A stretch of 37,703 nt of DNA, filler included, from Candidatus Woesearchaeota archaeon (GTDB lineage: Archaea > Nanobdellota > Nanobdellia > Woesearchaeales > ARS49): assembly GCA_016188265.1 (NCBI GenBank). It is 2 parts of 2 records of this genome, joined end to end, with 100 filler letters (N's around TTAATTAATTAA, not from the genome) between each part and the next. Parts side by side here need not be neighbours in the genome. Positions count along the whole stretch, not along the records: positions 30,017 to 37,703 come from JACPID010000005.1; 1 more part is not named here. One strand, 5' to 3'. This document shows, piece by piece, positions 16,048 to 36,315 of this stretch (position 1 is its first letter; each line of letters starts with the position of its first letter). The notes under the pieces were generated by a model. It was given only the letters and a program-made list of their open reading frames with translations. It made no database searches and was not told the DNA's origin. The translations under genes were made by a program, and so were the position numbers.

Positions 16048-17286
<1,239 letters not shown>

Positions 17287-29916: not shown

Positions 29917-30016
29917 NNNNNNNNNNNNNNNNNNNNNNNNNNNNNNNNNNNNNNNNNNNNTTAATTAATTAANNNNNNNNNNNNNNNNNNNNNNNNNNNN
30001 NNNNNNNNNNNNNNNN
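29917..30016. other. Artificial contig linker
   Basis: 44 N + TTAATTAATTAA (stops in six frames) + 44 N. Confidence 0.95.
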
Positions 30017-33763: not shown

Positions 33764-34254
33764 TTATTTCAGTTCATATCTATTACTATCTCTTCCATAG
33801 CATTTATCTATAACTTTTTTGAAAGATTTGTCTAAACTTATTCCTTGAGAATTAGCTAAACAACAACATGTAAAAATAATATCTGCTATTTCTTCACCTA
33901 ACTCGCTTGTTTTTTCTGACGCTTTTTTCTTTTTAGGACCATAAATATGATTTATTTCTCTTGCTAACTCACCAGTTTCTTCAGTTAACCTTGCAAGTAT
34001 TTCATGAGGTTTCCAATAGCCAATCTTGTATTGTTTTACCCAATCGTCAACTAATTTGTCAAGAACCAATGGTCAATAGACCAGTGGCATGAAACTTTGG
34101 TTTCAGCATCCAGTGGTTCACAAGAAAATGCAACGCATTTTCTGTGCACAGAAAATCTTCGATTTTCTAGTGCTTGAGCACACTAAGATTCCACTACTAA
34201 ACCACTAGTGAAACACTAGTGGAATCTTAGTGTTTGAATATCTGTTAAAGACAT
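33764..34254 (-). CDS. MazG-like nucleotide pyrophosphohydrolase interrupted by a 176-bp insertion
   Basis: LARLTEETGELAREINH..EEIAD; removing 34058-34233 gives MSLTDIQ|KLVDDWVKQY (104 aa); TATA box about 23 nt upstream of ATG 34254. Confidence 0.85.
34058..34233 (-). mobile_element. Multi-hairpin MITE/REP-like element, copy 2 (complete, 176 bp)
   Basis: Begins with a 17-bp stem ACACTAAGATTCCACTA/TAGTGGAATCTTAGTGT, ends GGTTCTTGAC; 129/134 identical to 7-140. Confidence 0.85.
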
Positions 34255-34287
34255 TAGTAAAATAAATAAACACCATTATATAAATCT

Positions 34288-35121: not shown

Positions 35122-36315
35122 TTAGAAGTCAACTAATCTTTTTTGTGTTTGAATATTTTTTAATAACCAACTTTTTTTAAGAAGTATACTAAGATCATAA
35201 CTGAACTTTTTTTTAGCTAGCGCTGTTGCATATGCAATCATTAATTCTTTTGATGAAAATGTTATTGGTTTTTGATTCATTGTCTTACGGGTTGCTTCTC
35301 GTGTCACCCATACTCCCAATGGTAAAGTATATTCTTCTGTTATAAATCTAAATACAAGAATACTTGCTTGTTTTTTTATTTCTTTAAGTTTCTCAGCTGT
35401 TGCTAATCTTACAGTATAGTATCCTCCTGTACAAGCCTCTGAATAATTTGTTCTTCCGTTAACTCCTTCGTAATCTGTAGCAACACTATTAGTTGGAACA
35501 AAAATCTCGAACAATTCATAACTCCACATGTCAGGAATTAATAAGATTAAATAATAATTTCCTAAATAAGAACCAAAAAATGCTTGATATTCGGTTAATG
35601 AATTTTCTTTAATTTGGGAAATAACTTGTTTTCCAAGCTGGTCGTCTACAGCAGTTATTGCCCATCTTGTTGGAACAAGTTTTCTATTTTTTTTAATTCC
35701 AAGAATTCCAACACTCAATAATCTTGAAAGAGCGCTTTCTTCTATATTTTTTTTATACAAATAATTTATTGCTTCTTGTGCTTTAAGATCTGTATCATAA
35801 ACAACTTTTTCAATTTTTGCAGAAATATTAGGATTATTTGTTAGTTCTGCTTTTTTAAGAAGAGCTTTCGGACCATGGGGTGCTGAATAAGGGTCGAGAT
35901 GATTTGTTAATTTAGGCGGTTTTTCTAGTTTAATTTCTACTTCTGCTGAATTATTTTTTGCCATTGCAACTTCTTGGATAAGATCAAGAAATTTTGTATT
36001 ATTTTTAACATTTAAAATTATTCTTGAGTTAAGTAGAGAGGTTCTTAAATCAACTATTTGTTCAATATTGTAGGATTGCTCTGCCCATTTTTTTGGCGCA
36101 TCATAAATCCATGGCGAATTTGAATATTCTGGCAAAGAAAGAATTCCTACGCTTATGTTTGGATACCCGTAGTGTCCTAGGAATGGTGCAGGAGCGCTGC
36201 CATTTAAAGAATCTGTCAATGCTAAAGATTTTATTTTAGTTTGTGCTTTAGCTTTAAGCCAAAACAGGCATGATGTTTCTTCATGTTTTCCTTTGCAGTG
36301 TGGACATTGTTTCAT
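35122..36315 (-). CDS. nreA: Nre-family archaeal DNA repair protein
   Basis: GYPNISVG, RKLVPTRWAITAVDD, GGYY..RL, PLGVWVTRE, C-terminal PIP box QKRLVDF. Confidence 0.88.
   Translation of the reverse strand: MKQCPHCKGKHEETSCLFWLKAKAQTKIKSLALTDSLNGSAPAPFLGHYGYPNISVGILSLPEYSNSPWIYDAPKKWAEQSYNIEQIVDLRTSLLNSRIILNVKNNTKFLDLIQEVAMAKNNSAEVEIKLEKPPKLTNHLDPYSAPHGPKALLKKAELTNNPNISAKIEKVVYDTDLKAQEAINYLYKKNIEESALSRLLSVGILGIKKNRKLVPTRWAITAVDDQLGKQVISQIKENSLTEYQAFFGSYLGNYYLILLIPDMWSYELFEIFVPTNSVATDYEGVNGRTNYSEACTGGYYTVRLATAEKLKEIKKQASILVFRFITEEYTLPLGVWVTREATRKTMNQKPITFSSKELMIAYATALAKKKFSYDLSILLKKSWLLKNIQTQKRLVDF

Follow-up and report, generated by a model that had tools for sequence, protein, structure and literature searches.

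IS608 finds its cleavage sites through a tetranucleotide that lies at the 5' foot of each end hairpin and pairs with the site (PMC3201880). In the account given there, the first guide base pairs with the second base of the site and the second guide base with the first, leaving the third base of the site unpaired; a further pair, fourth with fourth, was derived by us from the guide and site sequences in that paper. Among the non-autonomous relatives of such elements, the PATEs of Haloquadratum are described as hosting small repeats nested inside them, in genomes where intact tnpA is scarce (PMC3119063).

We analyzed a stretch of 37,703 nucleotides, called the window here, from Candidatus Woesearchaeota archaeon (assembly GCA_016188265.1). 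On its minus strand a MazG-like gene starts with an ATG at 34254, runs for seven codons, is broken by a 176-nt element (34233-34058) and continues for 97 codons to a stop at 33764. The features of the locus are as follows.

34277..34284, minus strand: TATA-like box; it starts 30 nt 5' of the ATG, a distance more frequent in this genome than any other
34234..34254, minus strand: codons 1-7 of the MazG/YpjD gene (first segment); Leu3 is conserved and Gln7 invariant
34234..34238, minus strand: left cleavage/target site TTCAA (TTYAA in the family), outside the element; 16/19 left ends follow TTTAA or TTCAA
34058..34233, minus strand: non-autonomous IS200/IS605-type element (PATE) of family A, 176 nt, as judged from its copies, its guides and matching TnpA elements
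34180..34233, minus strand: left arm, a long predicted outer stem around the left guide and hairpin, starting at the element's first base
34223..34226, minus strand: left guide GATT; under the rule of PMC3201880 its target would be TCnA, or TTnA with G:T wobble
34202..34222, minus strand: left subterminal hairpin, from the fold
34119..34172, minus strand: nested double-hairpin module of 54 nt, whose register slides by 3 (alternative 34116-34169)
34088..34091, minus strand: right guide CATG, for which the same rule gives TGnC as the cleavage site
34066..34087, minus strand: right subterminal hairpin, in which a private change at 34069 breaks one pair in this copy
34067..34069, minus strand: TTG codon in frame with the gene, lying in the right hairpin; sister copies read GTG here, and no Shine-Dalgarno-like motif precedes it
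34058..34061, minus strand: right cleavage site TGAC, the element's last four bases, as the right guide predicts
33764..34057, minus strand: second segment of the MazG/YpjD gene, 97 codons plus stop, free of stops and frameshifts

The host gene belongs to the MazG/YpjD nucleotide pyrophosphohydrolases: the part 3' of the element matches Pfam MazG (PF03819, E 3.7e-14), and a close homolog (P0003) resembles the solved YpjD proteins 5ie9 and 2gta with E about 1e-30. It carries the only MazG domain of the genome. Whether the 176 nt are removed at offset 21 or at offset 22, the result is one and the same open frame of 104 codons, with no target duplication, and 104 residues is also the length of 92 of the best 119 homologs (the window's own entry left out). 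The insertion point is preceded by exactly seven residues in 108 of these homologs, Gln7 is present in 119/119 and Leu3 in 110/119; judged by this alignment, the seven-codon first segment is real. The TATA-like box, at its modal distance of -30, suggests a leaderless transcript. Contigs assembled from public DNA runs contain both junctions of the element, so that the insertion is not an assembly artefact. The original prediction, an otherwise intact gene with a seven-codon first segment, split without target duplication by an insert made almost wholly of hairpins, thus agrees with the boundaries, the restored frame, the homologs and the junctions, and also with the folding energy of the insert as DNA (z -9.0, with 0/200 shuffles as good; z -6.5 for RNA with flanks). 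The insert is closed by stops in all six frames.

The element matches 27 places in the 924-kb genome, and an iterated search yields 50 intervals. These form two families, A and B, with a common right end closing in TTGAC. Five copies are 176 nt long and lie 0-4 bases from their consensus; the others span 51 to 310 nt, depending on which hairpin modules they lack or have in addition. The 19 left ends of family A follow TTTAA (8), TTCAA (8), TTGAA (2) or TTTCA (1), and the base after the right end is A in 13/13. Family A has neither terminal inverted repeats nor target-site duplications and inserts 3' of a conserved target of 4-5 nt; the ends of family B resemble inverted repeats. The repeats are short, multi-copy and devoid of a transposase ORF, as PATEs are. 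A 122-nt sister copy (G000:C13:22033-22154) lacks exactly the 54-nt double-hairpin module, which is also present in a family-B copy and away from element ends; in other genomes of the order the module or close kin likewise stands apart from such ends (L005, L006, L007, L008 and L013). Possibly the module is a mobile repeat in its own right, smaller than the element. Two further copies lie in the window. At 1-140, a family-A copy is cut off by the window start and followed by a short frame (142-333), similar to a RelE-type protein minus its N-terminus, for which a Pfam search gave no match. At 17147-17286, a complete intergenic family-B copy abuts the 5' end of an opposite-strand ORF of 366 codons.

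The guides fit the IS608 rule. The target predicted from GATT at the left is the one observed (wobble would also permit TTAA), and CATG at the right predicts the observed end of the element; the same rule settles the 1-nt ambiguity of the junction. To see whether guides and targets vary together in the family, we fixed the first bases by motif, which avoids circularity; 23 of 69 right-end hits qualified, related and non-independent elements among them. In this set pairing holds at position 4 in 22/23 elements (shuffle mean 8.5), at position 1 in 14/23 (shuffle mean 6.0) and at all three pairs in 14/23 (shuffle mean 2.4; 0/20000 shuffles), while position 2, with 17 paired against a shuffle mean of 16.0, is uninformative. 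An automated boundary finder based on the outer stem had been dropped in favor of motif anchoring, since it bounded 27/45 cases, several of them wrongly.

Autonomous elements with ends of the same type carry a divergent clade of Y1 TnpA, found in 20/401 genomes of the order (one unpublished). Left ends of this clade were drawn from 80 metagenome loci, and 26 of the 29 distinct scorable ones obey the guide rule (mean 8.7; 0/10000). Two metagenome loci, L333 and L328, encode Y1_Tnp (E 1.7e-19 and 1.9e-18). The right end of L333, an element preceded by TTTAA, equals that of the 176-nt element at 35/37 positions; L328 is practically the same there, and its likeness extends back into the final codons of tnpA. 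Their left ends are of the same type as that of the element, not near-identical. Subterminal hairpins with 5' guides, together with ends homologous to those of an autonomous TnpA element, mark the 176-nt element as an internally emptied IS200 relative; from its ends and guides, it is a non-autonomous IS200/IS605 element, a PATE. The original attribution to HUH transposition is thereby upheld by the guide rule, by co-variation and by a matching autonomous element. Within the clade (L254-L358), guides and targets change together, as in CTTT/AGAA, ATTT/ATAA, AGTT/CTAA and TTTT/AAAA. The TnpA sets first taken from relatives as possible parents were set aside, as they had mostly other ends and only the divergent clade matched.

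We propose that a Y1 HUH transposase, TnpA, supplied in trans, would bind both subterminal hairpins on single-stranded DNA and cut after TCAA/TTAA at the left and after TGAC at the right, at positions set by the guide of 4 nt at the foot of each hairpin. The excised strand would be circularised and then reinserted 3' of another TTYAA without duplicating it. An insertion of this sort would have struck codon 7 of the only mazG-like gene of this genome, probably a dispensable gene broken too recently to have decayed. Translation from the probably leaderless ATG would halt after 12 codons; the frame from 34254 does end there, at a TAG, which would leave the gene off or nearly off. We infer the transposition chemistry in this organism, the loss of MazG activity and the recency of the event from sequence. 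The scar-free ends follow from IS200-type insertion chemistry and imply no tolerance of the element by the gene. On balance, we estimate a probability of about 0.8 that the insertion is a recent knockout of a dispensable gene.

The distribution of the gene bears on its dispensability. A mazG-like match of any kind occurs in 14/61 genomes (one of them, G024, unpublished), and matches above 50% identity in just 4/60 relatives, one of these four being frameshifted into two frames (L024, G026:C6:24293-24579). By this patchy distribution, the gene is dispensable in this archaeal group. The broken gene keeps its promoter and 47/49 strongly conserved columns, which fits recency and equally fits continued use. 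Its protein has six rare residues, a number exceeded in just 3/119 homologs, with an overall rank of 30/120 and 81% identity to the nearest homolog. The original prediction held that an ordinary inactivating insertion would go with general decay of interrupted genes and no reads across an empty junction. The latter part is in line with the contigs described below; as to the former, the six rare residues stand beside a gene that is otherwise well kept.

The source of the transposase was sought in several ways. Neither Pfam, tblastn nor a profile of the clade detected a tnpA in this assembly, which is 98% complete, and none was seen in 20/55 element-bearing genomes; both results speak against our proposal. 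TnpA is present in 35/55 element-bearing genomes versus about 12/55 others, a co-occurrence that is suggestive only, because kin are non-independent and the comparison set was partly screened for the pattern. The source may have been lost, transient or unassembled. The genome has no TnpB zinc ribbon, and two right-end patterns gave 0 matches in viral contigs. The RRXRR domain of an IscB/IsrB parent gave no match in the genome or 60 relatives, in a search whose control matched nowhere either.

A further reading is a reversible switch, in which TnpA would precisely excise the element in some chromosomes and the population would keep a working allele. Scarless donor joints are normal for the family, with 0.7% excision in the assay reported in PMC10055086, and both ends of our copy are nearly intact. 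Precise excision, as originally suggested, is thus a real mechanism for the IS200/IS605 family, but no tnpA was found in the assembly, a mismatch is present in the right hairpin of this copy, and no contig of four public DNA runs skips the element (the runs come from one study, which may have used the source sample, and rare variants are lost in contigs). Contig depth across the element is many times that of the flanks in the four runs, and no 104-residue allele was found in the protein cluster. We regard such a switch as distinctly improbable.

If the element were invisible at the RNA level, it should be tolerated inside genes. Both ends could be placed for 26/50 intervals, 25 by motif and the present copy added by hand. 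After excision in silico, 8/26 copies fall in ORFs of >=100 codons, compared with 84.8% coding DNA. For family A the numbers are 4/13 copies in ORFs versus 79.7% of target sites (P 1.9e-4), and 1/13, a doubtful case, in ORF cores versus 70.9%. The intragenic copies, five in opposite and three in the same orientation, are mostly <=15 codons from a gene end. This depletion, which could partly come from targeting preference, counts against invisible RNA removal, since copies removed in that way should not be purged thus. A cross-genome excision test bounded 22/45 hits, some wrongly, and its ORF count (9) was not used.

Splicing or ribosome bypass would rely on two long arms predicted to fold so that the element's terminal bases meet. 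The fold does place the ends close, with the left arm running from base 1 and the right arm to the last bases; IS605 elements joined to introns exist as IStrons (10.1101/2023.11.20.567912); and copies in the middle of genes occur, such as a family-B copy (G000:C21:12008-12147, L194) that divides a SAM-dependent methyltransferase into 148 + 87 codons, both open. Nevertheless, the intragenic copies lie in both orientations and are strongly depleted from ORFs, and the left outer stem is also found in ordinary autonomous IS200 ends. An Rfam scan gave only sub-threshold hairpin matches, none at cut-off, with no HEARO and no group I or II intron at E <= 5, which gives no grounds for placing the element among introns or IStrons. 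Archaeal introns of another kind are marked by a bulge-helix-bulge, whose general geometry we used here; neither register shows it across the two junctions: the central helix scores 0/4 in one register and 3/4 in the other, the latter with flanking helices of 1/6 each. We therefore hold splicing or bypass to be very improbable, and put a bypass lacking any known intron, which would make the element a 176-nt stealth transposon in archaea, at the same low level.

In a relative (G172, L205:1390-1533), a 144-nt copy sits midway along truD on the other strand. It is in frame and stop-free and adds 48 residues, which, for this one case, is as expected if ribosomes read through the element.

The original prediction also offered a restart at the element's own TTG. 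A start there would give a 101-residue MazG in which four element-coded residues replace the first seven, possibly by re-initiation after a five-codon in-frame ATG-TGA mini-frame just 5' of the TTG. Such a product is possible: the frame open from 34069 spans the entire Pfam MazG domain, the mini-frame closes 3 nt ahead of the TTG, and surviving intragenic copies are mostly near gene ends, among them an opposite-strand family-A copy (G000:C4:54498-54673, L182) in a membrane methyltransferase gene of the PEMT/ICMT family (codon 15), also with an in-frame GTG. It would be a poor start, however, buried in a hairpin with no ribosome-binding site, changed in this copy from GTG to the weaker TTG, and yielding a protein that loses the invariant Gln7 as well as Leu3. 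Moreover, the element end has start codons in more than one frame, so that an in-frame start is unremarkable. The sole apparent case in a vital gene is that of acyl-CoA synthetase alpha (G000:C17:20902-21140, L186:1503-1740), whose gene in the assembly begins in an element, its own start missing. Public contigs carry an intact form of 446 residues, otherwise identical, which rules this copy out as proof of element-driven restart; the difference is a strain variant or an assembly error beside the hairpin. Partial rescue of MazG by restart seems unlikely to us.

The recent knockout that was one of the readings first offered is thus favored by the depletion from ORFs, by contigs that all keep the element and by the dispensability of the gene. 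The MazG-like gene is most likely switched off rather than repaired by splicing.

The right-end pattern is found in 58/401 genomes of the order (including the unpublished G348, G167 and G156), while the reversed control gives 0 hits. The elements thus form a PATE family in at least 58/401 genomes, tied to a divergent TnpA clade, in which guides and targets change in step. Natural targets include TTAA, TCAA, TGAT, TAAT, TCAT, AGAA, AAAA and others, and this series is material for testing the retargeting range of HUH guide pairing. The mechanism is already known and the gene break itself is ordinary. The family is not described in the literature that we searched, nor in the parts that we consulted of a 2026 survey of archaeal IS (PMC13343696), and is apparently uncatalogued. 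For annotation, gene callers begin proteins at a GTG or TTG of the element, as in the 101-residue MazG entry, and assemblies can differ next to these hairpins. Elsewhere in the window (35332-35638), runs X1 and X3 show a second Nre allele with 23 differences, at about one third of the depth, which suggests either another strain or a tract that has recombined. At 29917-30016, two N runs join contig C24 to the end of C25, by scaffolding or concatenation.

Rickettsia palindromic elements are likewise dispersed palindromes, to which the truD copy read in frame is similar, whereas the 176-nt copy in the MazG-like gene is out of frame. REP, BIME and REPIN sequences, as presented in PMC6006769, share the dispersed palindromes; in our elements the left and right ends differ, each has a guide of its own, and the match is to IS200-type TnpA elements rather than to a REP-associated transposase. 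With IStrons, as far as the account in 10.1101/2023.11.20.567912 goes, the element shares IS605-type ends, an intragenic position and a frame restored by exact removal, but IStrons carry a group I intron and the 176-nt element has none. Like IS608 (in the descriptions of PMC3201880 and PMC6006769), it has a guide tetranucleotide at the 5' foot of the hairpin and inserts 3' of a conserved target. It differs in target and right site (TTYAA and TGAC, instead of TTAC and TCAA), in having no internal tnpA or tnpB, and in that the related TnpA forms a divergent clade. The 54-nt module recalls SMR-A of Haloquadratum, described in PMC3119063 as a tiny repeat with inverted ends, nested in elements with no duplication; it is half that size and lies at the hinge between the arms, and its mobility is a candidate property only. 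Closest of all are the PATEs, as characterized in Haloquadratum walsbyi (PMC3119063) and Geobacillus (PMC10055086): both they and our elements are short and ORF-less, make no target duplication, have near-terminal palindromes akin to IS200/IS605 ends, are numerous in genomes that have few intact tnpA genes or none, and contain nested small repeats. Unlike those PATEs, the present family has another sequence and host group, long outer stems around both ends, and an interior that is a variable stack of hairpin modules with no match to omega-RNA.
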